A DNA stretch of 64,000 nt from Deltaproteobacteria bacterium (GTDB lineage Bacteria; Desulfobacterota; Syntrophobacteria; BM002), in the NCBI GenBank assembly GCA_020353155.1, contig CP070689.1, positions 1,038,302 through 1,102,301 of the forward strand, read 5' to 3'. A program made the translations under genes and the position numbers. The notes beneath the pieces were generated by a model. It made no database searches, was not told the origin of the DNA, and was given only the letters and a program-made list of their open reading frames with translations. Within the stretch, counting starts at the first letter, position 1; each line of letters opens with the position of its first letter. Shown here one piece after another: positions 415 through 62,573 of the stretch.

Positions 415-2940
415 ATGGGAAAGGTTAAACCCCCTGTGGTAAACAGGTCGCTTTGGTCCTGGATCTTAACTAGCAATTTAAAACTCCAGGCATTGCTGCT
501 AGTGGTCATTGTAATTGCTGTTTTTACCCGGGTCCTTCCTCTGGAGATGCAGAAGAGAATTGTCAATGAGGCTATTCGTTTCGGTGAACTGGAGTTGCTT
601 TTTCGCTACTGTGGACTGTATCTCGCCGCGGTTGTTCTTGCCGTCAGTTTGAAATACCTCATCAACGTACTGCAAAATCTCATTGGCGAGACCGTTTTGG
701 CAGATATGAGAAAGGAACTCTACCATCACATTCTCACTCTACCCCTAAATTTTTTCAGAAAAACCCAACCCGGCTTGGTAGTCTCGTCCTTGGTGACAGA
801 GTTGGCCACCGCGGGCAACTTCGTAGGTATGGCCATAGCCGTGCCGGTGACTAGTGTTTTAACCCTGTTGGCCTTTGCGGCCTTCCTCCTCTGGCTGAAC
901 CCCCTGCTGGCAGTTATCTCTCTTAGCATCTATCCACTGGTCTTGTTTCTGGTACCTATGGTCCAGAGGAGAGCCAACCTAGCCAACAAGGAGCGAGTGG
1001 ACGTTACTAGGACCCTATCTGGAAAAATTGGAGAGGCTATCACTGGTATCCACGAGATTCACGGCAATGGGTCTTACCGAATAGAAAACCGCAAATACGA
1101 CAAGATGGTCGAGGCCTTACGCAAAGTCAGAGTGAGCTGGAACCTTTATAAATTTGGGGTCAAGGTATTAAACAATTTCTTCAACAACCTAAGCCCTTTT
1201 CTGATCTTTATCGTTGGGGGTTACCTAGCCATAAAAGGAAGATTGGATTTGGGTGCTCTGGTTGCCTTTATATCCGCCCAGGAAAAGCTGTATGAGCCTT
1301 GGAAAGAACTGATAGAATTCTATCAGGTTTATCAGGATGCCACTGTTCGTTACAGCCGGACCATGGAGTACTTTGACACCCAGCCAGAGCACACTCTCGA
1401 ACCCGAAGACCGTGAGCCTTATGAGTTGGCAGGGAGCATAGAGGTCAAGGACCTGTCCTTTGTGGCTGAGGGTGGTATTCAACTCTTGGATAATATCAAT
1501 CTCACCTTAAAACCAGGAGAACAACTTGCCTTGGTTGGTTTTTCCGGCAGTGGTAAGTCCACACTGGCCCAATGCATTGGACAGCTTTACAGGTACACGA
1601 GCGGTCATGTTCTCTTGGGTGGTAAGGAGGTAAAAGATCTATCGAAGAAAGACGTGATTTACAACACGGGTTTTGTCTCGCAAACACCTTTTACCTTTGA
1701 AGGGACTATCAGAGAAAATCTGCTCTACTCGTGTGCCGCAGTTGTTAATGGTGGTGAAACTCTTGAGGTTGAGGCCATGCCCAGTTTGGACGACATGATC
1801 GAAACTCTGCAGCAGACTGGGATCTTTGTGGATGTCCTAAGATTCGGCCTCAATACCATTCTCTTATATGATGAACACCAGGAGTTGGCTGCAAAACTTG
1901 TTCGTGTTCGCGAGAACTTTAGGCGTGATTTTGGCGAGGAGTTGGCAGATTACGTGGAGTTTTTCGACGAGGACGAATACCTTTATCATTCCAACGTTGC
2001 AGTAAATTTGACTTTCGGCTCCGCCAACAAGGAAAACTACACAGTGGAAAAATTGCCCGAAAATGACTACTTCAGGCAGTTTACAGATGAGGCCGATCTT
2101 ACCAGACCGCTATTAACTCTCGGAGCCGACCTCTGCAGACAAACAGTGGATATTTTGGGCAATCTGCCACCCGAAAATGTCTTTTTTGAACAAAGCCCCA
2201 TAGGTCCACATGAGTTGGAGGATTATAAAGAGCTGGCAAAACGGATTGCTAAGAAAAGACTACACCAACTAACCTCCCAGGATCAGACTAGCCTCTTACG
2301 ATTAGCGCTGCGTTTTACCCCTGGCATACACAAGATGGTAAGAATGCCAAGCATTTTTGAAGAGTTTATTCTCGAGAGTCGTGCCCTATTCAAAGAGAAG
2401 ATTTCTGAGGACGATCCGAAGGCTATCACTTTTTATCAAACCTCGGAGTACATCTATTCAAAAACCATTCTGGACAATATACTTTTTGGTAAGACCAAAA
2501 CGGTTAATCCACATGCCGAGGAGAAAATCAACCAGTCAATAATTCAAGTACTTATAGAAGAAGATTTACTAGAGACCATTGTTGAAATAGGCATGGAATT
2601 CCAGGTGGGCAGTAAAGGTGACAGGCTCTCCGGCGGCCAACGTCAGAAACTAGCCATAGCTCGCATTTTCCTCAAGGCACCCGGGGTGCTAATCATGGAT
2701 GAGGCTACCTCGGCTCTGGACAATAATTCTCAGTCCCGCATCCAGGGTCTGCTTGATAGCAGATGGAAGGGAAAAAGCACACTGATTGCCGTTGTCCACC
2801 GCTTGGACATCATCAAGGGCTATGACAAGATTGCAGTAATGAAGGCGGGAAGAATCGGTGAAATAGGGACCTACGAAGAACTGATGAACAGGAAGGGGAT
2901 GTTGTATGAACTCATCTATGGAAAGAAGGCAGCAGTCTGA
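415..2940 (+). CDS. ABC exporter (fused permease + ATPase) with a large insertion inside the nucleotide-binding domain
   Basis: 841-aa ORF. N-terminal half is hydrophobic helices. Walker A GFSGSGKST, Q-loop VSQTP (Q423), signature LSGGQRQK (L738), Walker B LIMDEATSALD, H-loop VVHRL. Confidence 0.85.
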   Translation: MGKVKPPVVNRSLWSWILTSNLKLQALLLVVIVIAVFTRVLPLEMQKRIVNEAIRFGELELLFRYCGLYLAAVVLAVSLKYLINVLQNLIGETVLADMRKELYHHILTLPLNFFRKTQPGLVVSSLVTELATAGNFVGMAIAVPVTSVLTLLAFAAFLLWLNPLLAVISLSIYPLVLFLVPMVQRRANLANKERVDVTRTLSGKIGEAITGIHEIHGNGSYRIENRKYDKMVEALRKVRVSWNLYKFGVKVLNNFFNNLSPFLIFIVGGYLAIKGRLDLGALVAFISAQEKLYEPWKELIEFYQVYQDATVRYSRTMEYFDTQPEHTLEPEDREPYELAGSIEVKDLSFVAEGGIQLLDNINLTLKPGEQLALVGFSGSGKSTLAQCIGQLYRYTSGHVLLGGKEVKDLSKKDVIYNTGFVSQTPFTFEGTIRENLLYSCAAVVNGGETLEVEAMPSLDDMIETLQQTGIFVDVLRFGLNTILLYDEHQELAAKLVRVRENFRRDFGEELADYVEFFDEDEYLYHSNVAVNLTFGSANKENYTVEKLPENDYFRQFTDEADLTRPLLTLGADLCRQTVDILGNLPPENVFFEQSPIGPHELEDYKELAKRIAKKRLHQLTSQDQTSLLRLALRFTPGIHKMVRMPSIFEEFILESRALFKEKISEDDPKAITFYQTSEYIYSKTILDNILFGKTKTVNPHAEEKINQSIIQVLIEEDLLETIVEIGMEFQVGSKGDRLSGGQRQKLAIARIFLKAPGVLIMDEATSALDNNSQSRIQGLLDSRWKGKSTLIAVVHRLDIIKGYDKIAVMKAGRIGEIGTYEELMNRKGMLYELIYGKKAAV

Positions 2941-3433
2941 GTCCAGTGAGTTTCAGCAGAATCTGGAGGAATTACGGCAGATGGATTTTTTCTCAGCCCT
3001 GTCTATTGAAGCTCTCAAAGTGTTTGCCTATCTTTTCACTAGGGAGAAATTCAAGCCTGGAGATCATCTCATTCATCAAGAAGATAATGACGGCAAAGCC
3101 TTCTATATTCTCTCCGGAACAGCCGTTGTAGTTAGGCAGGATGAAAGAGGTGAAACAAACTTGGGGGAATTCGGTGAGGGAGATTTTTTGGGGGGTTTGG
3201 CACTATTGGGGGACATGCGTCGTCTTTTCTCTGTAAGGGCCCACACCGACCTTTTGTGCCTAGTGATGACCAGGGAGAAGTTCACTAAAGCAATAGAACA
3301 ATTCCCAGAACTTGTGCCAAGAGTTATGGAGACCATGGTTAAGCGCGTTCGTTTGTGGGAAAAGAGGCTCTTGCTTGAACATGGGGGACTCTGCGACCAA
3401 TGTCGAAAAAAAGTCGGTGTAAGCTTGATATAA
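2906..3433 (+). CDS. cyclic-nucleotide-binding domain protein
   Basis: 175-aa ORF whose start overlaps the ABC gene 3' end. cNMP beta-barrel motifs FGEGDFLGGLALLGDMRRLFSVRA. An alternative in-frame ATG at 2918 is possible. Confidence 0.75.
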   Translation: MNSSMERRQQSESSEFQQNLEELRQMDFFSALSIEALKVFAYLFTREKFKPGDHLIHQEDNDGKAFYILSGTAVVVRQDERGETNLGEFGEGDFLGGLALLGDMRRLFSVRAHTDLLCLVMTREKFTKAIEQFPELVPRVMETMVKRVRLWEKRLLLEHGGLCDQCRKKVGVSLI

Positions 3434-3492
3434 ACAAGCTAAAATCCATTACTTGGTAGTAGTGGTTCAGCTTTCGGCTAAGAAGAGGCTGA

Positions 3493-3948
3493 TTGTTGAA
3501 CACTCATGAAAAGGTTGCAGTTATGATTGCGGATAGAGTTTCATTAGAGCTGAAAAACAGCCTTTCCGAACTAGATACCCTAGGCCAAAGCCTGCAGCAG
3601 TTTGGAGAAGCGCTAGGCGTGGCCAACAAGACCTTATTTCAAATCTGTCTCGCCCTGGAGGAGATTTTCAGCAATATCATATCCTATGGGTACGCCGACG
3701 ATGCTGTTCACTGGATCAAAATCACCATTTCACATGAAAAAGGGATTCTTACAATACGGTTGGAGGATGACGGCATTCCTTTTAATCCCCTGTGGGCGCA
3801 AAAGCCAGATTGTGAATGTCCCTTGGAGGAACGAAAGGTAGGCAACCTAGGCATCCACCTTTGCAAAAAGGTTATGGATGACATGATATATGAAAGATTT
3901 GGGAACAAGAACGTGCTAACCCTAAAAAAGGACATAAAGAACACGTAG
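3493..3948 (+). CDS. RsbW/SpoIIAB-like anti-sigma serine kinase (HATPase_c)
   Basis: N-box-like EEIFSNIISYG, G1 LEDDGIPFNP, G2 GNLGIHLCKKVMD. AAGAGG lies upstream of TTG 3493. The alternative ATG 3523 is in frame. Confidence 0.7.
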   Translation: MLNTHEKVAVMIADRVSLELKNSLSELDTLGQSLQQFGEALGVANKTLFQICLALEEIFSNIISYGYADDAVHWIKITISHEKGILTIRLEDDGIPFNPLWAQKPDCECPLEERKVGNLGIHLCKKVMDDMIYERFGNKNVLTLKKDIKNT

Positions 3949-5532: not shown

Positions 5533-6504
5533 TCAATAGAAAATTGTCCGCGTTCGATGATAGGGCAGGGCACGATAGGCATCCTCTTGCCCCAAATGCC
5601 AAAGCCAGGTATCCAGCTGAGGGGAATTTACTCTGAACCCCTGACTGGTGAGCTCCTGTCGCAGCAGTTCCACAGCCCAAATCGTCGTCGCTCGGATCTC
5701 CACCTCTTCAGGACTACCCGCGGGTATATGCACCAGGTTTTGGATGAGATCCGCCAGTTTTGGTTTGTAGTGCAGTATACCCAGATGGCGAAGGACCTGG
5801 GGCAATTTATAGTCAGCGAAACAGGTTAGGTGATCCAAATCACGGAAATTTCCCCAGGACTGACCCGAGAAGGTGGTGTAAAGATCGTGCACCAGCAATT
5901 GGGCCCGTTTGTAAAAATAGACCTTCTTGCCGCCGTATGTGGCTGTGTCGTTGAAGCTGGGAAACTCCTCTGCTAACAAATCAATTAGCACTATGGCCGA
6001 GCCGGCGGCCTCCTCAAGCACGTGAATAAAGCTCCCCTGGAATCTATCGAGTAAAACCTGTCCAGCCTGACGAAGATTTTGTAACCTTTCCGCAAAGAGG
6101 GGAATTTGTCCTCTCCCCCTAAAGATGTGAGCCAAGGTCTCTGAGTCTAGGTCGGCAAGAGTTGTTGCTCGGTGGATGGGAAATCCCTCCTCCATGGCAC
6201 GTTTAAGGCTGGCAGCCAGTGCCCAGTAACCGGAGAGCGCTTCATCGTTGTAATGAACAGTCCAGAGCGCTGAGTCCACATCTGGCCAGAAGCAATGGTT
6301 GACAGTATCAACTAAGAAAAGCCACTCTGCGGTGGCACCGGTGGAGTCAAAAAAGTGGTATGGGGCAGGCCCAAGGGCGAGGGGCGAGATCTCGAGATGT
6401 GAACTATCAGCTAGAAGGTCTGATATGGCCTCAGTGTCTATGTGCACATGTTTGCTGTGTTCCACAACTGCTAGACAAGAGGAGAGAACAGAAAGGAGGC
6501 TCAT
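5533..6504 (-). CDS. queuosine salvage family protein (DUF2419 / Qng1-like)
   Basis: 323 aa. Motifs VNHCFWPD, YFYKRAQLLVHDLY and LTCFADYKLPQVLRHLGIL are typical of DUF2419. Confidence 0.7.
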   Translation of the reverse strand: MSLLSVLSSCLAVVEHSKHVHIDTEAISDLLADSSHLEISPLALGPAPYHFFDSTGATAEWLFLVDTVNHCFWPDVDSALWTVHYNDEALSGYWALAASLKRAMEEGFPIHRATTLADLDSETLAHIFRGRGQIPLFAERLQNLRQAGQVLLDRFQGSFIHVLEEAAGSAIVLIDLLAEEFPSFNDTATYGGKKVYFYKRAQLLVHDLYTTFSGQSWGNFRDLDHLTCFADYKLPQVLRHLGILHYKPKLADLIQNLVHIPAGSPEEVEIRATTIWAVELLRQELTSQGFRVNSPQLDTWLWHLGQEDAYRALPYHRTRTIFY

Positions 6505-7237: not shown

Positions 7238-8749
7238 ATGCGAGTCAGTGATTTCCCGGTTGACATTCAGCCCCATCTTTTTCCTCAGCCTTCAGGCGAT
7301 CTGATTTATCGCTGCCTACAGTGCGAGGAAATCTTTAACATTGAATCGCTACTCTATACTTGCCCTGAGTGCAAAAGCGTCCTCTTGATCGAAGATCGTG
7401 AATGGCAAAGGTTGAAAGAGTTCAGCGGTTCATTCTGGCGGCGTCTGTTTGACTACCGCAAGATGCTCAACCACCCTGCCTTAAAGGGGATTTTCCTTTA
7501 CTACGAGATAATTGCTCCAGTGATACCGCTGGAAGACATTATTTACCTGGGGGAGGGTCATACCCCGGTAGTTCAAGCAAACGATGGACTAAGAGATTGG
7601 GTGGGAGTTGATTTCTATTTCAAAAATGACGGGCAGAACCCGAGCGCTTCCTTCAAGGATAGAGGAATGGCATGTGCCCTGAGCTATTTGAATTATCTGG
7701 TGCGCAGTCAAAACTTAACCGAGGTGTTGTCCATATGTGCCTCCACGGGAGACACTTCAGCTGCTGCAGCACTCTACTCTGCCTACATGAGCAAAAAGGT
7801 TAAATCAGCGGTCTTATTGCCACACAAGAAGGTCACACCCCAACAAATCTCTCAGCCTCTGGGAAGCGGTGCGCGGGTGTTCGAGATCCCGGGAGTATTT
7901 GACGACTGCATGAAGGTAGTAGAGCATCTTGCTGATAATTACCATGTGGCACTGCTGAATTCAAAAAACGCCTGGCGCATTCAAGGGCAAGAGTCCTACT
8001 CCTTTGAAGTAGCTCAGAGTTTTGACTATGACCTGGCAAACAAGGTGGTGCTGGTGCCCATCGGTAACGCCGGCAATATTACCGCAATAATGGGAGGGTT
8101 TCTAAAATTGCTCGACCTTGGAGTGATAGATACTCTGCCCAAGATTATTGGCGTCCAGTCGGAGCATGCCGATCCAGTTTACAGATACTACAGAGAGACC
8201 GACCCAAGTAAGCGTATTTTTCGCCCCGTCACTGTCAAACCCAGTGTGGCCCAAGCGGCCATGATAGGCAATCCGGTTTCCATGCCCAGGGTAATACGTT
8301 TGGTTGAAGCTTACGAACAGGTTCCAAACAGTCCCGGGGTTTTTGTAGTGCAGGTAAGTGAACAGGAGATTATGGACTGCCAACTCATTGCTAACCGAAA
8401 TGGCCATATCGCTTGTACTCAAGGGGGAGAATGTTTGGCTGGTTTGCTCAGAGCCCGAAAAGAAGGGATTGTATCAGATCAGGAGGTGGCGGTTCTCGAT
8501 GCCACCGCTCATGCGCTCAAGTTTGCCGGATTCCAAGAGAGTTATTTTGGCGACAATTTGAACGGAGCCTATGAAATTGTGCCCAAAGATGAATTGAGGA
8601 ATTTTCCCACCTTGGTCGAAGCTCCTGGGGTGGAAAGGCTGCCCGCACCGGGAAAGCCCTTATCTGAAGATGAGTTTCAGAAATTCGTGGTGGCGACCGC
8701 CAGGGAAATTGCCCGAGAACTTGATCTGAAAGAGAAAGGGTCGGGGTAG
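7238..8749 (+). CDS. threonine-synthase-like PLP enzyme with N-terminal zinc ribbon
   Basis: 503 aa. CLQCEE...CPECKS ribbon. PLP-lysine motif SFKDRG. Fold-type II glycine-rich loop PIGNAGNITA. Confidence 0.65.
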   Translation: MRVSDFPVDIQPHLFPQPSGDLIYRCLQCEEIFNIESLLYTCPECKSVLLIEDREWQRLKEFSGSFWRRLFDYRKMLNHPALKGIFLYYEIIAPVIPLEDIIYLGEGHTPVVQANDGLRDWVGVDFYFKNDGQNPSASFKDRGMACALSYLNYLVRSQNLTEVLSICASTGDTSAAAALYSAYMSKKVKSAVLLPHKKVTPQQISQPLGSGARVFEIPGVFDDCMKVVEHLADNYHVALLNSKNAWRIQGQESYSFEVAQSFDYDLANKVVLVPIGNAGNITAIMGGFLKLLDLGVIDTLPKIIGVQSEHADPVYRYYRETDPSKRIFRPVTVKPSVAQAAMIGNPVSMPRVIRLVEAYEQVPNSPGVFVVQVSEQEIMDCQLIANRNGHIACTQGGECLAGLLRARKEGIVSDQEVAVLDATAHALKFAGFQESYFGDNLNGAYEIVPKDELRNFPTLVEAPGVERLPAPGKPLSEDEFQKFVVATAREIARELDLKEKGSG

Positions 8750-9433: not shown

Positions 9434-9700
9434 CTAGGCCTTGGCAGGTTTCCTCCAGCGGTCAGATGGATTGAGGTAATATTGGCGCATCTGGTTGGCA
9501 TCGAGTGCCTCGAATATTATGCGGTGGCGGTTAAGTTCTTCCAGAGCACTTAAAAGCGCCTCGGGTTTGTCATTCCAAAATGTTCCCGCCGACTCAATGG
9601 TGATTGGCGTACCGCTTTCGGCCAGATTGCAGATTAATATGTAAGCCGAAGTAGCTTCCACAGACAAATTTAAACTAAAAATCTTCCTATCCATAACCAT
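9434..9700 (-). CDS. hypothetical protein (88 aa)
   Basis: Clean ORF in an otherwise non-coding gap. No recognisable motif. Confidence 0.4.
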   Translation of the reverse strand: MVMDRKIFSLNLSVEATSAYILICNLAESGTPITIESAGTFWNDKPEALLSALEELNRHRIIFEALDANQMRQYYLNPSDRWRKPAKA

Positions 9701-9774
9701 CGATCTCCTTGTTCTCTAGAGCGGGTAACAGAGACTATAATAATAGCTGCTGAAGCACAAGGAAAGACGTCGAG

Positions 9775-10012
9775 CCCGGATATTACATGAATCACCTGCT
9801 GCGACCACGAAACTGGGAACCCGCTTGCGGGACTGAGCGGAGCGCAGCGAGCGCGAATAATATGGCCGTCCTCCCTGGCGTCCTCGGGTGTCGGCCCCTG
9901 CGACGTACCGTTAAGGTACGCCTCGGGACCAATCCCGCGGTCCCGCGGGACGGTTGCCAGGTGGCACGCCCATCTTCGCGGTCTCGCGACAGCAATTCAT
10001 GAAACATCCGGG
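9775..10012 (+). repeat. MITE-like GC-rich palindromic element, type A, copy 1
   Basis: Terminal inverted repeats CCCGGATATTACATGAAT / ATTCATGAAACATCCGGG. The 3' ~130 nt is ~85-90% identical by eye to 27415-27546. Confidence 0.8.
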
Positions 10013-10239
10013 CTAGAATTTAAATGTAGAACACTCTAGATCTTTTTATAGCTTTTTGTCTAGGTCAAGAAGCCTCAAAAAAGGTATTTCCCTAAAAATT
10101 GCACTAATATAATTACATTTTTGTGGTTGCATGTGATTTTGTTATTGAGTATGTTTTTTCTGTTTACCAACACCTTCATATAATCCTTTCGTAGGGTTTT
10201 TGTGCGACGGTGGAAGGTATTTATGGCAGGGATAAAGCA

Positions 10240-12546
10240 ATGAAAAATGTTTATGAGAACGTCCTCCAGCTGATTGGCAACACACCTTTGATTCTGATAA
10301 ACCGCCTAAATTCAAATCCAAAGGTGAGTATTTATGCCAAGCTGGAGTCTCGAAATCCAGGCGGTTCAGTCAAGGATCGCATTGCTTTGCAAATGGTTGA
10401 ACAGGCGGAGCTCAGAGGAGAGCTTACGCCGGAAAAGACCATAATCGAAGCCACAAGTGGCAATACTGGCATTGGCTTGGCCGTGGTAGCCGCAGTAAAA
10501 GGATATAAAATTACCCTGGCCATGCCTGAGACTGCCAGTCAAGAGCGCCAGAAGATACTCAAAGCACTTGGGGCTGAGATATTGCTTACCCCTGGGGCCC
10601 TGGGAACGGACGGTTCTATAGAGAAGGTTTATGAACTGGCCCGCCAGTTTCCTGATCGTTATTTCATGCCTGACCAATTCAATAATGAAGACAACTGGAA
10701 GGCTCACTATTACACAACCGCCAAAGAAATCTGGGAACAGACTGAGGGTAAGGTTACTCACGTAATAGCGACTCTTGGCACTACCGGTACCGCTATCGGC
10801 ATAACGAGACGCCTGAAAGAGTACGACCAAGACATATGTGTGATTGCGGTCGAGCCCTATATGGGACATAAAATTCAAGGGCTCAAGAATATGAAAGAGT
10901 CATATGTTCCAGGGATTTTTGCTAAAGAGCTCTTGGATGAGATAGTTCATATAGAAGATGCCGAGGCTTTCGAAACAGCGAGGAGGTTGGCCAGGGAAGA
11001 GGGCCTTTTTGTAGGAATGAGCGGTGGGGCCTCCATGGCAGCGGCCCTCCGTACTGCACTTAGGTTGGAAGAGGGAAACATTGTGGCCATCCTTCCCGAT
11101 GGTGGTGAACGGTATCTCAGCACGAACCTATTCACCACCCTGTCGGAGCCAGATTTTCGCTTTTACAATACCTTCTCACGTCAAAAAGAAGAATTTAAGC
11201 CGATCTCGGAAGGTAAAATCTCTATTTTTACCACCGGTCCAGCGGTGGGGGAATCACTCGAGCTAACTGAGAGTCGCCGTTTGGTCGTAGCCGATCTCCT
11301 CCGGCGTTATTTGGAATATAAGGGTTTTGAGGTAAGTCAAGCTATCAACTTAACCGACATGGGAGAAAAGGCCATATTGGATTCTAGTCACGGCTTAGAT
11401 ACTGACGCCGAGCGGTATATGGAGATCTGCCGGAGGGATACAAAAGTCTTGGGGGTACAACCCGCCACTTACTATCCCCGTACAAGCGAATACGTCGATG
11501 ATATCCTAGAGATTAGCAAGATCTTAATGGAGAAAGGTATAGCTTACGAAAAACTCCGTTCGGTATATTTTGACATTTCCAAATTTGCTGACTATGGAAA
11601 GCTGTCTCGCGTGGATTTGCAAAAAATCAGGCTCGGCAAGACAGTTGATCTCGAAGCTTATGAGAAGGAGAATCCGCGAGATTTTACTCTTCTTAGACGG
11701 GCGACTCTGGCCGAGCTGAAAAGGGGAATATATCTAAAAACTACCTGGGGAAACGTGCTGCCCTCCCTGCATCTCGAGACAGTAGCTTTAGCCATGAAAC
11801 AGCTGGGAACTACCATAGACATTCATGTAAGCAGTTTGGACTTTTTGTTTCCTCACAATGAAAACGAAATAGCCATCGCCCAAGCAGCCACGGGCAAACC
11901 TCTCGCCAACTACTTCATTCATTGCGAGCGGGTGGTTGAGGATGGCAAGAAGATGTCGAGAGAAGGTGAGGGTAGGGAGACGGTGCAGCAACTGCTAAAT
12001 CGGGGGTACAGTGGCAGACAGATACGTTACTGGTTGCTGGCTACCCATTACCGTAAGCCCCTGCATTATGAAGAGGGCAGATTAGATGAGGCTGCACGGA
12101 GCCTGGAACGGTTGGATGAATTTGTCCAAAGGTTGCAATATGTAGTTGCAGGTGACGATGCCGGCGAAGTCGATCAGTTAATCTATGAAGTTGAGCAGAA
12201 TTTTGACGAGGCAATGGGCGACGACCTGAACATTTCATCAGCCCTTGCTGCTATCTTCAGTTTTGTCCGCAAACTCAATCCATACATTTCTGAGGGTCGT
12301 CTGAGCGAGGGTCAAAAGGAAGCAGCCCTTGCAGCGATGGAGCGACTGGATTCTGTGTTGAACCTTATTCACTGCGCAGAGGCTGACCTGGATGAGAAAA
12401 CCTGTCGACTTCTTGAAGCCAGAGCTGAGGCTAGAAGGAGTAAAAGATGGGAAGTGGCTGACCGAATCCGGCACGAACTTCTGGAGCTTGGTATCAGGGT
12501 TGTTGATACTCCGGAGGGAACCCGCTGGAAACGGGTAGAAAATTAG
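10240..12546 (+). CDS. fusion: cysteine synthase (CysK/CysM type) + catalytically degenerate cysteinyl-tRNA-synthetase-like domain
   Basis: N-terminal part has GGSVKDR, TSGNTGIGLA, GTTGTAIG and GMSGGA. C-terminal part has FYNTFSRQKEEFKP, FPHNENEIA, KMSREGEG and a CysRS-like anticodon/C-terminal region. Start set to ATG 10240. Confidence 0.8.
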   Translation: MKNVYENVLQLIGNTPLILINRLNSNPKVSIYAKLESRNPGGSVKDRIALQMVEQAELRGELTPEKTIIEATSGNTGIGLAVVAAVKGYKITLAMPETASQERQKILKALGAEILLTPGALGTDGSIEKVYELARQFPDRYFMPDQFNNEDNWKAHYYTTAKEIWEQTEGKVTHVIATLGTTGTAIGITRRLKEYDQDICVIAVEPYMGHKIQGLKNMKESYVPGIFAKELLDEIVHIEDAEAFETARRLAREEGLFVGMSGGASMAAALRTALRLEEGNIVAILPDGGERYLSTNLFTTLSEPDFRFYNTFSRQKEEFKPISEGKISIFTTGPAVGESLELTESRRLVVADLLRRYLEYKGFEVSQAINLTDMGEKAILDSSHGLDTDAERYMEICRRDTKVLGVQPATYYPRTSEYVDDILEISKILMEKGIAYEKLRSVYFDISKFADYGKLSRVDLQKIRLGKTVDLEAYEKENPRDFTLLRRATLAELKRGIYLKTTWGNVLPSLHLETVALAMKQLGTTIDIHVSSLDFLFPHNENEIAIAQAATGKPLANYFIHCERVVEDGKKMSREGEGRETVQQLLNRGYSGRQIRYWLLATHYRKPLHYEEGRLDEAARSLERLDEFVQRLQYVVAGDDAGEVDQLIYEVEQNFDEAMGDDLNISSALAAIFSFVRKLNPYISEGRLSEGQKEAALAAMERLDSVLNLIHCAEADLDEKTCRLLEARAEARRSKRWEVADRIRHELLELGIRVVDTPEGTRWKRVEN

Positions 12547-20090: not shown

Positions 20091-21056
20091 ATGCGCATAC
20101 TTTCAGGTATTCAGCCTTCAGGGAGCCTGCACATAGGCAACTATTTCGGCATGATGAAACCCATGATTGCTTATCAAGAGGAAAACGAGCTCTATTGCTT
20201 CATTGTAAACTATCACGCCATGACTTCGGTTATAGACGGAGAGCAACTTGCTTCGGGGACAATGGAGGCGGCACTCGACTTCCTCGCCCTCGGCCTGGAT
20301 CCTGACAGGGCAATCTTTTGGGTACAGTCAGATGTGCCGGAGGTGACGGAATTGACCTGGATCCTCAACAATGTAACCCCCGTTGGCCTCCTACTCAGGA
20401 GCCATTCCTACAAAGATAAGATCGCTCAGGGGATATCGCCAAATCATGGTCTTCTTTCTTACCCGGTGCTTATGGCCGCAGATATTCTTCTCTACCGGTC
20501 AGAAAAGGTTCCGGTGGGGCAAGATCAGCAACAGCACTTGGAGATTGCCCGAGACATCGCCATCAAGTTTAACCATTTGTTCGGGGAGACCTTCGTAATT
20601 CCCGAGGCGGAGATCAATCCCAATATACCCACGGTTCTGGGGCTAGACGGCAGGAAGATGAGTAAATCATACGACAATACCATTGAAATCTTCGCCGAAG
20701 AGGAAATCCTTCGTGGAAAAATCGGTGCCATAGTCACCGATTCCACTCCTGTAGCAGATCCCAAAGACCCTGACAAATGTAACCTCTACGCTATTGCATC
20801 TTTGTTTCTAACTGAGGGGGAAAAGGCTGAGCTGGCGGACCGCTATCGTCGTGGCGGGCTAAGATACAGTGATGTCAAGAAAGAACTCTTCAATTTGATT
20901 TGGGATTTTTTTGGGGAGGCCCGTGACAGGCGTGAGAGATTGCAGCGGAATCCTAGCCAGATTCGCGACATTTTGAAGGCCGGTGCTGAGAAGGCCAGGG
21001 CCAAGGCCCTTCCAACCCTGGAGATGGTGAGAAAAAAGGTAGGATTGGCTTACTAA
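20091..21056 (+). CDS. trpS: tryptophan--tRNA ligase
   Basis: 321 aa. GIQPSGSLHIGNYFG (HIGH region) and KMSKS present. Length is typical. Confidence 0.9.
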   Translation: MRILSGIQPSGSLHIGNYFGMMKPMIAYQEENELYCFIVNYHAMTSVIDGEQLASGTMEAALDFLALGLDPDRAIFWVQSDVPEVTELTWILNNVTPVGLLLRSHSYKDKIAQGISPNHGLLSYPVLMAADILLYRSEKVPVGQDQQQHLEIARDIAIKFNHLFGETFVIPEAEINPNIPTVLGLDGRKMSKSYDNTIEIFAEEEILRGKIGAIVTDSTPVADPKDPDKCNLYAIASLFLTEGEKAELADRYRRGGLRYSDVKKELFNLIWDFFGEARDRRERLQRNPSQIRDILKAGAEKARAKALPTLEMVRKKVGLAY

Positions 21057-23999: not shown

Positions 24000-25169
24000 A
24001 TGGAAAAAAGCATTAGCAGGCGAGATTTCCTGAAACGATGCGGCCGTTGTGCCCTGCTGGGTTTGACTCTTGAGTCCCTTGTCTTGACGACGACTGCCTC
24101 CCGTTCGCAGGCCTTGGGTTTGAAGAAAGGTTTCCTGGGCCGCAAGCTTTCCCCTTTTTTCACTCCCCTTGAAGATGGTAGCGTAAGGTGTGAGCTTTGC
24201 CCCCACCTTTGCGAAGTGGAGGTGGGTGAAAGGGGCTATTGTGAAGTTCGGGAAAACATTGGTGGCCGCTACTATTCGCTGGTCTACGGTAACCCCTGTG
24301 CAGTTCATGTGGACCCCATAGAAAAGAAGCCTTTTTATCATGTTCTCCCCACAAGTCGTTCTTTCTCTATTGCCACTGCGGGATGCAATTTCGATTGCAA
24401 GTTTTGTCAAAACTGGGAAATCTCACAGGCTCGGCCGGACGACACCCACAATTACGACCTGCCCCCTGAACAGGCGGTAGAGCTGGCCTTAAGGTACAAA
24501 TGTCAATCCATCGCTTCCACTTATGTGGAGCCCACAATCTTCACCGAATACATGATCGACATTGGTATACTTGCTCAAAAGCAGTCCGTCTTGAAGGTAA
24601 TGCATTCCAACGGATACATCAACCGGGCCCCCCTACAGCAACTGGGTAAATATCTTAACGCTGCTTGCATCGATCTCAAGGGTTTCAGTGAGTCCTACTA
24701 CCGAAATCTTACCGAGGGATCTCTCGAGCCTGTACTGGAGACACTTAAAGGGCTGAAGAGTTTGGGTATTCACACTGAAATTGTCAATTTGGTGATTCCA
24801 GGCAAAAATGATGATATGGAACAGGTGGCTGCCATGTGCAGGTGGATCAAGAAAGAACTAGGGCCAGATGTGCCATTGCACTTCAGCCGTTTTTATCCTC
24901 TCTACAAACTAAAAAGTTTACCACCAACCCCGGTATCTACCCTGGAGCGAGCTCGAGACAAAGCCCTCAAGGAGGGCCTCCATTTTGTCTACATTGGTAA
25001 TGTGCCCGGTCATCCTGGCGAACACACTGAATGTCCCCGATGCAAAACCAGGATTATTCAGCGTTGGGGATACAAGGTCCAGGTGTTGCATCTAAAAAAA
25101 GACCGCTGTGACCGGTGTGGCCAGCCAATACCCGGGATTTGGCAACATCCACTGCTAAATTCCACCTAG
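24000..25169 (+). CDS. AmmeMemoRadiSam system radical SAM enzyme with twin-arginine signal
   Basis: CNFDCKFCQNW (CxxxCxxC). N-terminal SRRDFLK followed by a hydrophobic stretch. C-terminal CPRC...CDRCG. Confidence 0.85.
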   Translation: MEKSISRRDFLKRCGRCALLGLTLESLVLTTTASRSQALGLKKGFLGRKLSPFFTPLEDGSVRCELCPHLCEVEVGERGYCEVRENIGGRYYSLVYGNPCAVHVDPIEKKPFYHVLPTSRSFSIATAGCNFDCKFCQNWEISQARPDDTHNYDLPPEQAVELALRYKCQSIASTYVEPTIFTEYMIDIGILAQKQSVLKVMHSNGYINRAPLQQLGKYLNAACIDLKGFSESYYRNLTEGSLEPVLETLKGLKSLGIHTEIVNLVIPGKNDDMEQVAAMCRWIKKELGPDVPLHFSRFYPLYKLKSLPPTPVSTLERARDKALKEGLHFVYIGNVPGHPGEHTECPRCKTRIIQRWGYKVQVLHLKKDRCDRCGQPIPGIWQHPLLNST

Positions 25170-26143
25170 GCTGTTCCTTGAAAGAATTCGTTGGCCATAA
25201 CAGTTGCAGTGGCCAGTGAATCTGCATTATGAACCAGAGTCCATAAGGTGTGACCAAAGGCATAGTTTTGAGAGAAGTAAAAAGTGAATCGCTTGAGCAA
25301 AGGTAGGGTATATTCAGGTTCCATAGAGTTTTCTAAGATTAAAATAAAACGTTTAAAGGCATCGGCTGGGTCTGGATAGTTGTTGTCGCAAACTCCTGGT
25401 GAGAGTGAATTGGCTATTTGACGGAATAGCCAGGGACTTTTGACCGCAGCGCGGCCAATCATAACTCCGTCGCACCCGGTTAGCTCGAACATTCGATTGG
25501 CGGCCTGAGGTGAATTGACGTCACCGTTTCCGATGACAGGGATATCCAGAAGCTCTTTTATCTTTCCAATATACTCCCAGCGAGCCGGTCTTTTGAGCCT
25601 ATCCTCTTTCAGCCGTGGGTGCAGACAAACCGCATCCACCCCACTGTCCTGAAGCATGAGGCAAAAATCGCGCAGCCCGTTCCAGCTCATTGTCCAACCC
25701 AAACGGATTTTAGCGGTAAGCGGCAGGTTGGTGGCTTTACGGCTACTTCTAACTATCGCCTCTGCTCGTTTTGGTTTTTTCATTAAAGCAATGCCGCCTC
25801 CTCTTTTGGCTATCAAAGCGGTGGTGCATCCCATGTTCAGATCGATGCCGTCTCCGCCGCAGGATTCGATCTTTGCAATGGCAGCCGCTACTTCCTCAGG
25901 GTGGGATACTAGTAACTGGTAAACAATGGGCCGCTCTTGAGGAGTACCCCGCAGCCAGGGTGATGAGTCAGGCGACTCAGAGGGAAGAGCCCGGGCGCTA
26001 AGCATCTCAGTATAGAAGAGACCGCAACCACCAAATTCAGCCACCAACTGGCGCAAAACAGTGTGGGTCAGTCCACTCATGGGGGCCAAAATTAAAGGCG
26101 GATCCACTTTGAGATTTTTGATATAAAGAGGCTTTAGTTTCAT
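25166..26143 (-). CDS. tRNA-dihydrouridine synthase family protein
   Basis: PLILAPMSGLT and a TIM-barrel Dus layout. Start moved to ATG 26143 (MKLKPLY) because the longer track ORF runs into repeat E1. Confidence 0.8.
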   Translation of the reverse strand: MKLKPLYIKNLKVDPPLILAPMSGLTHTVLRQLVAEFGGCGLFYTEMLSARALPSESPDSSPWLRGTPQERPIVYQLLVSHPEEVAAAIAKIESCGGDGIDLNMGCTTALIAKRGGGIALMKKPKRAEAIVRSSRKATNLPLTAKIRLGWTMSWNGLRDFCLMLQDSGVDAVCLHPRLKEDRLKRPARWEYIGKIKELLDIPVIGNGDVNSPQAANRMFELTGCDGVMIGRAAVKSPWLFRQIANSLSPGVCDNNYPDPADAFKRFILILENSMEPEYTLPLLKRFTFYFSQNYAFGHTLWTLVHNADSLATATVMANEFFQGTA

Positions 26144-26203
26144 TGGGTGCCTATGATATTTATCAATGGTGGCCTGCCGCAAGGCGAATAGCGCAAAGCG
26201 TTT

Positions 26204-26300
26204 GGTGAACAGTAAAGGGTGAACGGTAAACTGATTATGCGCTGGGTCCACAACCGCTGACCATTTCCCGTTTACTCTTTTTTTCGCTAGACGCTATGCG
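26204..26300. repeat. ~100-nt dispersed element E, copy 1 (upstream of the Dus-family gene)
   Basis: ~80-85% identical by eye to 54827-54929, including the exact shared run CGTTTACTCTTTTTTTCGCTA. Confidence 0.8.
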
Positions 26301-26540: not shown

Positions 26541-27368
26541 ATGTTTTGGCTTGTTTTGCTCCTATTATTCTGGCTAATGGGTGTTGCATTTACTTATTTG
26601 CTTTTCTATTACGAATCGGCAAATGGTCGGCACCTGGAGGTTCTGCGCTCAAGAGGTTCGGTGCCCATTATGATTCTCAGGAGTTTTTTCTGGAGTCTAT
26701 ACAGCCATTTGCTCGTCTTACTGACGGCAACAACTGCTTTACACCGCGATTACTATAGCTTGCCAGTTGGCCCGGCCGATAGAACTCCGATTATCTTTGT
26801 CCATGGACTGTATCACAACCACACGGCCTGGTACCTTTATCTTCGCTGGTTTCGCCGCTGGGGTTGGAGCCATATGAAAGCAATTAAATTAAAGGGGAAA
26901 TTTCGATCGATCAATGAGTTTGCCCGGATTCTGGCGGAGGAAGTCGAAAAAGTAATGGCTGAAACCCAAAGCGAGAAGGTGGATTTGGTCGGTCAGAGTA
27001 TGGGCGGACTTGTGATCAGATCTTATCTGGCGGAAGACTCTGGCCGAGCTAAAATCCGCAGAGTCGTCACCCTTGGTAGCCCTCATAGAGGCTCAAAGCT
27101 AGCAGTTTTCGGCCTGGGTCAAGCAGCAAAGGAAATGGTTCCTGGGAGTGCATTTCTGGAATCACTGAACCAGGGTGTCCAAATTCCACAAGATGGTCGT
27201 TTTTATGCGATCTACACACTTGTGGACAACATGGTTCTGCCCAACGAATCTACCAAGCTTACCTGGGATGGAGTGAAGAACTTGGAGACTCGAATTGTAA
27301 ATCACGTGGGCTTAGCGTATTGCAAACATACGGCACGCTTAGTGAAAGAGTGCCTGGAAGAGGATTAA
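26541..27368 (+). CDS. alpha/beta hydrolase (lipase/esterase-like)
   Basis: IIFVHGLYHNH and the nucleophile elbow GQSMGG. N-terminal TM helix. Start ATG 26541 follows GAGG. Confidence 0.75.
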   Translation: MFWLVLLLLFWLMGVAFTYLLFYYESANGRHLEVLRSRGSVPIMILRSFFWSLYSHLLVLLTATTALHRDYYSLPVGPADRTPIIFVHGLYHNHTAWYLYLRWFRRWGWSHMKAIKLKGKFRSINEFARILAEEVEKVMAETQSEKVDLVGQSMGGLVIRSYLAEDSGRAKIRRVVTLGSPHRGSKLAVFGLGQAAKEMVPGSAFLESLNQGVQIPQDGRFYAIYTLVDNMVLPNESTKLTWDGVKNLETRIVNHVGLAYCKHTARLVKECLEED

Positions 27369-27546
27369 CCCGGATGTTTCATGAATTGTTTACTACGATC
27401 ACGGATATGGGCATCCTTCCGTGCGTCCTCGGGTGTTGGCTCCTGCGACGTACCGTTCAGGTACGCCTCGGGACCAATACCCTGCGGTTGCCCGGTGGCA
27501 CGCCCATCTTCCTGGTCTCGTGACAGCAATCCATGAAACATCCGGG
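27369..27546 (+). repeat. MITE-like GC-rich palindromic element, type A, copy 2
   Basis: TIRs CCCGGATGTTTCATGAATTG / CAATCCATGAAACATCCGGG. Begins at the first base after the hydrolase stop codon. Confidence 0.85.
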
Positions 27547-27564
27547 TTAGGACAGGAGAGGAAA

Positions 27565-61449: not shown

Positions 61450-61511
61450 CAAGCTATCGGCGAGACGGCCATATCCGTGGTTGCAGTAATCGATTCATGT
61501 AACATCCGGCC

Positions 61512-62573
61512 TTAGGCCACCGTGATGGAATTCTTCCCCACATCCTTGCTTCGATAGAGGGAATTGTCTGCCATTTGTAAGAGTTCCCTTTTGTCGGATG
61601 CATCAGTAGGATAATTGGCGATACCGAAGCTAGCGGTCAATTTGATAGTTAGGTTCAGGTCCTTTAGGTAAGTGGCATCCGCCAATGCCTTACGGATGGC
61701 AACCACTTTATCAAAAGCCAAATTTTTGTCCTGGCCCGGCAATATGATTACATATTCATCCCCACCATAGCGCACCAACCGATCATCTTGTTCTAGCCTG
61801 GAGGCTATAACCTCAGCAGCCTCTCGTAAAATCTTGCTTCCGAGCAAGTGTCCGTGTCTATCCACATGTTCCTTGAAGTTGTCCAAGTCAAGGAATACCA
61901 GCGAAACTTCCTGCCCTTGGTGCAGCAACTGGTCCAAATGCTGGTGCATGAAGCGGGTGTTGTAGTAACCTGACACGTCGTCGGTAATGCTCAGTGACTC
62001 GATCTTTCTGTAGGTGCGAGCATTATGGATAGCAATGGCTACATAATCGGCTAGTATGGAGAGGAGGGGCATGAAATTGTCTTGAAATAGAGACATGTCC
62101 TCAGGGTTTATTATTTCAATGACGCCGATCACCGCACCCTGCATTTTTAGAGGAAGACATATAATAGAGCGAGTGACGAATCCGGTGAGATCGTCTACTC
62201 TATTACTAAAGCGAGGGTCACGTCGAACCTCCGGCACCAACATTGGCTCACCCGAGAGCGCAACGGTACCTGCTATGCCCTCACCGAGCTGTATTCTCAC
62301 GTCCGCCAAGGAACCTTTGTCCAAACCAACCACCACCTCGAAATATAGCTCCTGGGTCTCAGGATCCAAAAGAAACAAGGTCCAATTCTTCGCCCTAATA
62401 AGCTCACTTAATCGTTTAAGTATGATAATTAGTATCTGGTCCATATTAAAAGTTGAGGTGAGTGCTTTCCCAATCTCAACGCAGGTCATTAGCTGTTGAA
62501 TGTAAATGGAGCTCTCTTCAGGTGAATTAGTGTGGGTGGGTAACAGATCTACTTCTTTGAATAGCTCATCCAT
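61512..62573 (-). CDS. GAF-domain diguanylate cyclase (GGDEF)
   Basis: GAF-like N-terminal half. RYGGDEYVIIL active site. Start placed at ATG 62573. The track ORF extends to TTG 62624. Confidence 0.8.
   Translation of the reverse strand: MDELFKEVDLLPTHTNSPEESSIYIQQLMTCVEIGKALTSTFNMDQILIIILKRLSELIRAKNWTLFLLDPETQELYFEVVVGLDKGSLADVRIQLGEGIAGTVALSGEPMLVPEVRRDPRFSNRVDDLTGFVTRSIICLPLKMQGAVIGVIEIINPEDMSLFQDNFMPLLSILADYVAIAIHNARTYRKIESLSITDDVSGYYNTRFMHQHLDQLLHQGQEVSLVFLDLDNFKEHVDRHGHLLGSKILREAAEVIASRLEQDDRLVRYGGDEYVIILPGQDKNLAFDKVVAIRKALADATYLKDLNLTIKLTASFGIANYPTDASDKRELLQMADNSLYRSKDVGKNSITVA

Follow-up and report, generated by a model that had tools for sequence, protein, structure and literature searches.

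Positions 10240–12546 on the forward strand of a 64,000-nucleotide stretch of a Deltaproteobacteria bacterium genome (contig CP070689.1, positions 1,038,302 to 1,102,301; hereafter the window) form one uninterrupted open reading frame (ORF) of 768 amino acids plus a stop codon in the ORF listing of the window. In its product (hereafter the query), a CysM-type cysteine synthase dependent on pyridoxal 5′-phosphate (PLP) is joined to a full-length homolog of cysteinyl-tRNA synthetase (CysRS), as the original prediction for this locus had proposed and as the ORF, Pfam and NCBIfam matches and alignments bear out. The mechanical ORF spans 10210..12546 (+) and opens at a GTG at 10210; we took the ATG at 10240 as the start because homolog N-termini (MxNxYxN...) favour that position. 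Pfam assigns PALP to residues 9–287 (E 6e-76), tRNA-synt_1e to residues 319–618 (E 7e-63), DALR_2 to residues 654–709 and CysS_C to residues 716–763, and full-length alignments of the CysRS half reach E values of 1e-65 to 1e-85, far beyond chance. The features of the gene are as follows, with CysRS residues numbered as in E. coli CysRS (1li5).

10240..12546, +, whole gene: CysM-type cysteine synthase plus CysRS-like pseudo-synthetase (continuous ORF, Pfam, same layout in 84 of 84 related loci fetched)
10240..11133, +, CysM/O-acetylserine sulfhydrylase (OASS)-B-type PLP domain, residues 1–298 (TIGR01136, 2v03 alignment, Foldseek)
10366-10380, +, SVKDR with the PLP lysine Lys45, residues 43–47
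10453-10470, +, TSGNTG, residues 72–77
10777-10791, +, GTTGT, residues 180–184
10864..10920, +, family-specific CysM loop GHKIQGLKNMKESYVPGIF, residues 209–227 (invariant columns)
11014-11031, +, GMSGGA, residues 259–264
11134..11154, +, linker TTLSEPD, residues 299–305 (CysM alignments stop at residue 298 and CysRS alignments begin at residues 306–307)
11155..11532, +, degenerate N-terminal Rossmann half, residues 306–431 (alignments to CysRS)
11227-11241, +, FTTGP, with T332 at the C28 position (VCG to TTG)
11260-11271, +, ELTE in place of HIGH, residues 341–344
11362-11379, +, GEKAIL in place of the KIIK segment (K76 lost)
11533..11778, +, connective polypeptide (CP) insertion, residues 432–513, the best-conserved segment of the protein
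11542-11580, +, CP family-signature motif AYEKLRSVYFDIS
11659-11757, +, CP family-signature motif YEKENPRDFTLLRRATLAELKRGIYLKTTWGNV, with a 4-residue insertion relative to E. coli
11761-11784, +, PSLHLETV, W205L and C209T (HIECS to HLETV), beginning in the CP part
11779..12024, +, degenerate C-terminal Rossmann half, residues 514–595 (alignments to CysRS)
11824-11841, +, HVSSLD, the G225-G226-G227 turn changed to VSS
11848-11871, +, FPHNENEI, H234 and E238 kept, H235N
11950-11964, +, KMSRE in place of KMSKS, residues 571–575, second Lys and Ser replaced
12025..12384, +, stem-contact/helical (DALR) domain, residues 596–715, HYR (603–605) and DDLN (661–664) kept (DALR_2)
12385..12543, +, C-terminal anticodon-binding domain, residues 716–768 (CysS_C)

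The hallmarks of CysK/CysM enzymes claimed for residues ~1–300 were all located, and the N-terminal half scored 381.9 against the NCBIfam model TIGR01136 (cysKM; cut-off 344.15), while the equivalog models fell just under their cut-offs (cysM, 368.7 versus 394.2; cysK, 343.7 versus 350.95). It aligns nearly gap-free to residues 5–292 of E. coli CysM (2v03) at ~50% identity, superposes on 2bhs in Foldseek with template modelling (TM) scores of 0.92–0.93, and shares the PLP and substrate-loop motifs of CysM, or OASS-B (E. coli 2v03/2bhs, Salmonella 2jc3). K45, T72-G77, G180, T181, G183, T184 and S261 do not vary among 53 diverse family members, and the ratio of nonsynonymous to synonymous substitution (dN/dS), measured here and below against relatives with unsaturated dS of 0.7–1.3, is 0.03–0.055. 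This half is accordingly listed here as a predicted, catalytically intact enzyme. The TSGNTG loop of OASS binds the free α-carboxylate of the substrate, and its invariance therefore argues for a free amino-acid substrate. Unlike CysM itself, the query carries a 470-residue CysRS-like extension and an invariant sequence of its own, GHKIQGLKNMKESY, in the CysM-specific loop. The family-specific loop GHKIQGLKNMKESYVPGIF is equal in length to that of E. coli CysM, is invariant at H210, Q213, G214, K216, N217, K219, E220, Y222 and P224, and is modelled by AlphaFold2 (AF2) with low confidence at residues 208–222. Assignment to an O-phosphoserine-type CysM, based on a presumed likeness to the M. tuberculosis CysM loop, was not supported, as the M. 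tuberculosis enzyme scores far below E. coli CysM on this segment.

Residues 306–768 are homologous to canonical CysRS (TIGR00435, 1li5/1u0b) over the full length and keep the same five-domain layout, yet lack HIGH, KMSKS, the GGG turn, both zinc-binding cysteines and W205, and have a remodelled CP insertion. The alignment to TIGR00435 (cysS) spans positions 2–465 of the 466 in the profile at a score of 330.4, under the cut-off of 340, and the score against the MshC model TIGR03447 is 128.4 (cut-off 485.1). Alignment to CysRS structures and to the family agreed with the initial reading of the HIGH position as ELTE and of KMSKS as KMSRE. At the zinc site, both cysteines had correctly been read as lost (C28T, C209T); the asparagine, on the other hand, occupies the H235 position, and because H234 and E238 are retained only two of the four protein ligands are missing rather than three. 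Further losses, beyond those first listed, are W205L, the change of the GGG turn to VSS and K76. Since the ATP site (HIGH, GGG turn, KMSKS) and the zinc/cysteine pocket (C28, C209, W205) are both gone, the CysRS-like half of the query clade almost certainly cannot activate cysteine to cysteinyl-adenylate (Cys-AMP) or charge tRNA, judging from these alignments; the motif losses are real, and the earlier view that the protein probably cannot activate cysteine stands. The N-terminal Rossmann half has moreover become acidic (net charge −6.3 in the query clade versus −0.8 in canonical CysRS), as expected where the ATP site has been lost, and with a dN/dS of 0.04–0.09 it is still constrained.

The RNA-reading parts have fared differently from the Rossmann halves. 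Four diverse canonical CysRS share 118 invariant positions; in a selective-retention test on these, the query clade kept 10 of 10 in the anticodon domain and 10 of 11 in the helical domain, as against only 50–52% in the Rossmann halves. GDDLN and TPEGTRWKR are present in the query, matches to PF09190 and PF23493 cover the DALR/helical and anticodon-binding domains with their conserved residues, and the anticodon domain keeps the equivalents of E. coli R423, R427, D436, R439, L442, G446 and D451. Across 74 other fusions, R423, R427, D436, R439 and D451 are retained at 99–100%. The E. coli residues contacting the anticodon are those that we take, from the 1U0B structure and domain homology, to do so. 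Furthermore, an AF2 model superposes on the tRNA-bound chain 1u0b_B (TMt 0.80, 482 alignment columns, 461-residue chain covered), and the CysRS-like half as a whole evolves under strong purifying selection (dN/dS 0.05–0.10). The strongest constraint falls on the CP insertion, whose dN/dS of about 0.02 makes it as constrained as the CysM half or more so. This insertion carries a family-specific invariant motif pattern, YEKxNPRDFTLL[KR]RATLAELKRG, with the 4-residue insertion, and a net charge of about +5 to +5.6 versus about −2.0 in canonical CysRS, a shift of about +7 towards basic; recognition of the first acceptor-stem base pair falls to this CP1 segment in canonical CysRS (PMC5389517). Retention of tRNACys binding by the CysRS-like half is thus plausible from the conserved anticodon and helical residues, in line with the suggestion in the original prediction that the protein may still bind this tRNA.

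The same conservation could be read without tRNA, as that of a dead CysRS half kept for folding or oligomerisation of CysM or for partner recruitment, in substitution for a CysE-CysK complex and with the CP insertion as a protein–protein interface. That the CP insertion and not the anticodon domain is most conserved, with motifs that are family-specific rather than canonical, would suit such a role, as would a conserved gene for a protein of ~335 residues directly downstream in 25 Desulfobacterales loci. CysK-type enzymes moonlight through complexes with CysE, CymR and CdiA-CT, and PDB entry 5j43 was among the structure matches. A scaffold would, however, need neither the 99–100% retention of R423, R427, D436, R439, D451, D348, D349 and N351, which we infer to be surface base-recognition residues and which are invariant in canonical CysRS, nor the full-length tRNA-shaped architecture kept across the whole family, and we regard this explanation as unlikely.

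To the original prediction the fusion was a one-off; it instead belongs to a large graded family found in at least 595 species. More than 120 full-length fusions came up in a protein search, and a genome scan covering one genome per GTDB species with two CP-domain peptide patterns peculiar to these proteins matched at least 600 stretches, with at least 595 species genomes confirmed as holding relatives. Almost all of these are Desulfobacterota (among the matches listed, Desulfobacterales, Desulfatiglandales, Syntrophobacterales and Desulfarculia), so that the phylogenetic distribution sought at the outset is a spread mostly across this phylum, with Syntrophobacterales and "Deltaproteobacteria" metagenome-assembled genomes (MAGs) holding the nearest relatives of the query. 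Cultured carriers are Desulfonema magnum and, among the protein search matches, Desulforhabdus amnigena (BSDR01000001.1). Each of the 84 loci fetched encodes an in-frame PALP plus CysRS-like fusion, the five incomplete ones ending at contig edges, and the fusion is present in the complete chromosomes CP070843.1, CP070692.1 and NZ_CP061800.1 (D. magnum). The doubt attached to the original prediction, that separate cysM and cysS genes had been joined by a frameshift or assembly error, can draw on a split form in one lineage (below), where a stop and a 4-nt gap lie exactly at the junction. Against it, the two halves share one reading frame across the junction in the window as in 84 independently assembled loci, complete chromosomes included, the same continuous ORF recurs in all of them, and the linker sequence is conserved (TTLSEPD, seven residues, within the query clade); we give this explanation practically no credence.

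Degeneration within the family is graded. Rooted on four canonical CysRS, a neighbour-joining tree placed the fusions in a monophyletic group with the least degenerate members basal, and no Desulfobacterota family member examined has a canonical HIGH together with KMSKS. The few least degenerate members (for example, L004, L066 and L029) combine HLGN or HLGV with KMSRS or KMSYS and keep C28, C209, H234 and E238 intact, although L029 has lost W205 despite its otherwise intact zinc positions; HLGN also occurs in a solved Elizabethkingia CysRS (PDB 6ujd, presumed active). In L004 the fusion gene (1372-3690) overlaps the 3′ end of miaA (390-1379) by 8 nt, which suggests co-transcription with this tRNA-modification gene (tRNA isopentenyltransferase, A37). 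Most of the family keeps C28, C209, H234 and W205 and has HIGE, HIGQ or DIGQ at the HIGH position, with the KMSKS loop destroyed (KVDEK, KPSRx and similar). Both zinc cysteines have been lost in a single clade, formed by the group of the query, the D. amnigena group and a group with HLGH and RMSHV, and within this clade only the group of the query has lost W205 as well. The query clade is thus the degenerate extreme of a large graded family.

Two further informative forms came from an exhaustive HMMER search of 1.84 billion representatives. The first is a split form, in which an unfused CysRS-like protein of 468 residues with the fusion-type CP motif (HIGL, KMSRS, zinc pocket intact) is encoded 4 nt downstream of a 305-residue PALP gene on three contigs from three samples:

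L085, 4209-7293, split PALP and CysRS-like pair
L088, 1470-4571, split PALP and CysRS-like pair
L089, 292-3398, split PALP and CysRS-like pair

The PALP protein of the split pair is 63% identical to the CysM half of the query; that of L085 shares the loop GHKIQGLKNMKESYVPGIF, and there the stop and start of the split genes lie exactly at the fusion point. Because the unfused gene adjoins its PALP partner, the partnership of CysM and CysRS-like protein is conserved whether fused or split. A gene for a ThiF-family E1-like protein follows the split pair; this linkage is confined to the split lineage, where it hints at a sulfur-carrier or thiocarboxylate connection. The second form is a PALP-CysRS fusion of 768 residues in a Nanoarchaeota MAG (GCA_048623195.1; L086 8001-10307, L087 4571-6877), which has canonical motifs (HIGN, KMSKS, CCHE, W205), lacks the CP motif of the Desulfobacterota type and represents an independent fusion. 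To go by its motifs, this DPANN archaeon may have a true bifunctional cysteine synthase/CysRS.

The Nanoarchaeota fusion bears on whether the query could itself be a working bifunctional enzyme that channels newly made cysteine onto tRNACys. Basal Desulfobacterota members are only about one substitution from canonical, HLGN is found in 6ujd, the Nanoarchaeota fusion has intact motifs, and the annotation pipeline PGAP calls some members cysteine--tRNA ligase. Aminoacylation may be a property of the basal members and of the Nanoarchaeota fusion, and this suggests an ancestral state in which a true bifunctional enzyme channelled cysteine to tRNA. What may hold for basal members does not, however, carry over to the query gene: in its clade each element needed to form the adenylate or to select cysteine has been replaced, in several cases by an acidic residue, its TIGR00435 score lies under the cut-off, and canonical CysRS is documented in Desulfobacterota, both as the active enzyme of D. 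tiedjei and as cysS genes of Desulfobacterales (PMC5389517). For the query, bifunctionality is accordingly very improbable. Neither tblastn nor a Pfam survey detected a second CysRS in the 64-kb window, and none lies in the 84 flanks; none of the 150 nearest representatives carried the 'MSGA' signature of D. tiedjei CysRS.

Chemistry on the tRNA itself, raised in the original prediction by analogy with SepCysS, would have the pseudo-CysRS hold Sep- (O-phosphoseryl-), Ser- or Cys-tRNACys while the CysM half performs PLP-dependent β-replacement in the manner of SepCysS or SelA, yielding cysteine, a persulfide or selenocysteine (Sec). In its favour, what has been preserved best in the dead synthetase are the CP (acceptor-stem) and anticodon modules, a Lys-rich loop that is both invariant and flexible lies in the CysM half, and one member with near-intact motifs (L004) overlaps miaA. 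There is also precedent, in that serine derivatives can serve as substrates of fold-type II PLP enzymes, and PLP chemistry on tRNA is known from SelA and SepCysS (PMC2330236, PMC5424206). The genomic context points the other way. No SepRS, SepCysS or tRNACys gene adjoins any of the 84 loci, neither SepRS nor SepCysS nor any tRNA gene was found in the window, and bacterial SepRS is reported from few lineages in published surveys (PMC5424206, PMC8762117), whereas the fusion occurs in at least 595 species. An aminoacyl group esterified to tRNA would, moreover, not need the TSGNTG carboxylate loop, which is invariant here, and the split form consists of two separate polypeptides. As for structure, the AF2 model of the whole protein (predicted local distance difference test score (pLDDT) 83, predicted TM score (pTM) 0.61) has a pLDDT below 50 at residues 294–303, in the linker region, gives no confident inter-domain geometry and leaves the two active sites apart; a Foldseek comparison with the PDB found no single entry spanning both halves. 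The proposal thus found no positive support in linkage across the 84 loci, in the TSGNTG loop or in the model, and we consider it improbable. Still more doubtful is its furthest extension, a third, independent way of handling cysteine on tRNA in which the dead CysRS half would position tRNACys or a lineage-specific isoacceptor, for instance of the selC* type, so that the fold-type II PLP domain works on the tRNA-bound residue or hands its product to it, yielding Cys-, persulfide- or Sec-tRNACys without canonical activation at this site. tRNACys of the selC* type is known from Syntrophobacterales and Desulfobacterales, and no linkage to selC* or selB* was noticed among the annotated ORFs of the window.

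The reading that we favour is that the pseudo-synthetase docks tRNACys onto the cysteine synthase and so couples cysteine synthesis to the status of tRNACys, acting as a sensor or regulator. We put its probability at roughly 40%, and it is drawn in part by analogy; of the roles offered in the original prediction, the regulatory or sensing one fits the evidence best. The protein has the traits of a regulatory pseudo-synthetase, namely aminoacylation motifs lost while the domain is retained under purifying selection, and a stable coupling to an effector enzyme. In such a scheme, the N-terminal half would be an active CysM-type enzyme, probably dimeric, that converts an activated serine and a sulfur donor into free L-cysteine, and the C-terminal half, descended from a real CysRS, would now serve as a pseudo-synthetase keeping its RNA-reading parts. 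The basic, remodelled CP insertion would sit where CysRS grips the acceptor stem, the CysRS-like half would dock tRNACys on the cysteine synthase, and cysteine production might thereby be coupled to the state of the tRNACys pool, the regulatory output being speculative. Relatives retaining the zinc/cysteine pocket may in addition detect cysteine or the cysteinyl end of Cys-tRNACys, an input that the query clade would have lost. Varied neighbourhoods of the fusion gene and a lack of riboswitch or T-box elements upstream (below) would be compatible with regulation built into the protein.

Several points weigh against tRNACys docking. Both the tRNA binding and the regulatory effect are deduced, and the identity of the anticodon-contacting residues presumes the 1U0B contacts and domain homology. 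The AF2 model, with its low pTM and low-confidence linker (pLDDT <50), gives no structural indication that the halves are allosterically coupled, and the basic CP insertion could bind another partner, or the CysM half, instead of tRNA. Most of the family retains the zinc/cysteine pocket that is lost here, so that either the ligand differs by clade or the main input lies elsewhere than in the pocket. Finally, the model requires a separate canonical CysRS in the same genome.

The surroundings of the fusion gene vary between subfamilies, and these differences speak against a conserved operon partner family-wide. CP070843.1 shows local synteny with the window, with a queuosine-salvage (Q_salvage) gene, a cNMP-binding gene, a thrC-like PALP gene and an 87-residue ORF preceding the fusion. 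The following lie in the window:

5533-6504, queuosine salvage gene
7238-8749, +, threonine-synthase-like PALP protein of 503 residues (TIGR00260 score 179.9, cut-off 167), syntenic in CP070843.1
8753-9277, +, γ-carbonic-anhydrase/hexapeptide-repeat protein, 4 nt after the thrC-like gene and upstream of the fusion
9434-9700, −, divergent ORF of 87 residues just upstream of the fusion, matching no Pfam or NCBIfam family
9765-10022, GC-rich element (~250 nt) bearing terminal inverted repeats of 23 nt and predicted to fold very stably (−120 kcal/mol), intergenic and upstream of the fusion
20091-21056, TrpRS-type gene
25166-26251, Dus gene
27366-27388, fragment of the GC-rich element
27405-27550, second copy of the GC-rich element
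61476-61512, fragment of the GC-rich element

The tRNA-related genes among these (queuosine salvage, TrpRS-type and Dus) are scattered, and the position of the 87-residue ORF is conserved in CP070843.1 (L001 9414-9677) and several related loci. Related genomes carry copies of the GC-rich element at sites that are not homologous (L001 5248-5525, L009 7396-7576), and the element has no Rfam match; it looks like a lineage-specific dispersed repeat resembling miniature inverted-repeat transposable elements (MITEs) or repetitive extragenic palindromic (REP) sequences. No riboswitch or T-box was found upstream of the fusion, the structured element there being this repeat. In Desulfobacterales, the downstream gene of ~335 residues has no Pfam family and often follows after a gap of 3–50 nt (for example, L080 7835-8839 and L049 7608-8618), and tmk lies directly upstream in 17 loci, with an OB-fold/HD-domain gene and surE ahead of it; this arrangement of tmk upstream and the ~335-residue gene downstream is confined to a Desulfobacterales subclade and absent from the window. 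A pair of tRNA-Ser genes (GCU and UGA) lies shortly downstream in L020, L021, L046 and L053, including loci of the Desulfatiglandales type, and is probably clade synteny and not a functional link.

Among known systems, the closest parallels in possible working are HisZ and the HisRS-like domain of GCN2, which are likewise aminoacyl-tRNA synthetase paralogs without aminoacylation kept as ligand- or tRNA-binding modules on an effector: for HisZ a subunit of the cognate amino-acid pathway (ATP-phosphoribosyltransferase), for GCN2 a fused kinase. Both belong to another synthetase class and family; HisZ lacks an anticodon domain and senses histidine, and GCN2 drives a kinase, so that the comparison is one of analogy and not of membership. 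MshC lacks an anticodon domain and, like CysRS*, presumably keeps the catalytic core. As with the query, both are paralogs derived from CysRS by duplication (PMC5389517, PMC9437257). CysRS* of Desulfobacterales comes from the same phylum and also has an altered CP1 segment (PMC5389517); it has no anticodon-binding domain and shows genetic linkage to selC*/selB* (PMC5389517), whereas the query pairs a dead core with an intact anticodon domain. The likeness to SepRS/SepCysS is conceptual, namely the coupling of a PLP enzyme that inserts sulfur to tRNACys in anaerobes. SepCysS is, however, a fold-type I PLP enzyme unrelated to the fold type II of CysM, SepRS is a class II enzyme, and for the fusion no source of Sep-tRNA is linked and no on-tRNA activity is indicated. 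A 2022 review of synthetase duplications gives CysRS* and MshC as the sole CysRS paralogs (PMC9437257), and we found no description of a CysM-CysRS-like fusion in the full-text literature searched.

Few synthetase paralogs have lost catalysis and taken up regulatory or metabolic roles, and those few (HisZ, the GCN2 HisRS-like domain, MshC, GluQRS) have been studied a great deal. In the present family, a CysRS paralog of full length stands in permanent fusion with the enzyme making its amino acid, in hundreds of species of Desulfobacterota, the dominant anaerobic sulfur cyclers. Automated names for these proteins are inconsistent ("cysteine synthase" or "cysteine--tRNA ligase"), and for the query clade the latter is very likely wrong and could mislead metabolic reconstructions. 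The family offers a natural series from near-active to dead active sites in which the tRNA-reading modules are conserved throughout, and hence a ready system for studying the transition from synthetase to pseudoenzyme. If tRNACys sensing is borne out, the fusion would constitute a bacterial, protein-level analogue of uncharged-tRNA sensing wired to amino-acid synthesis.

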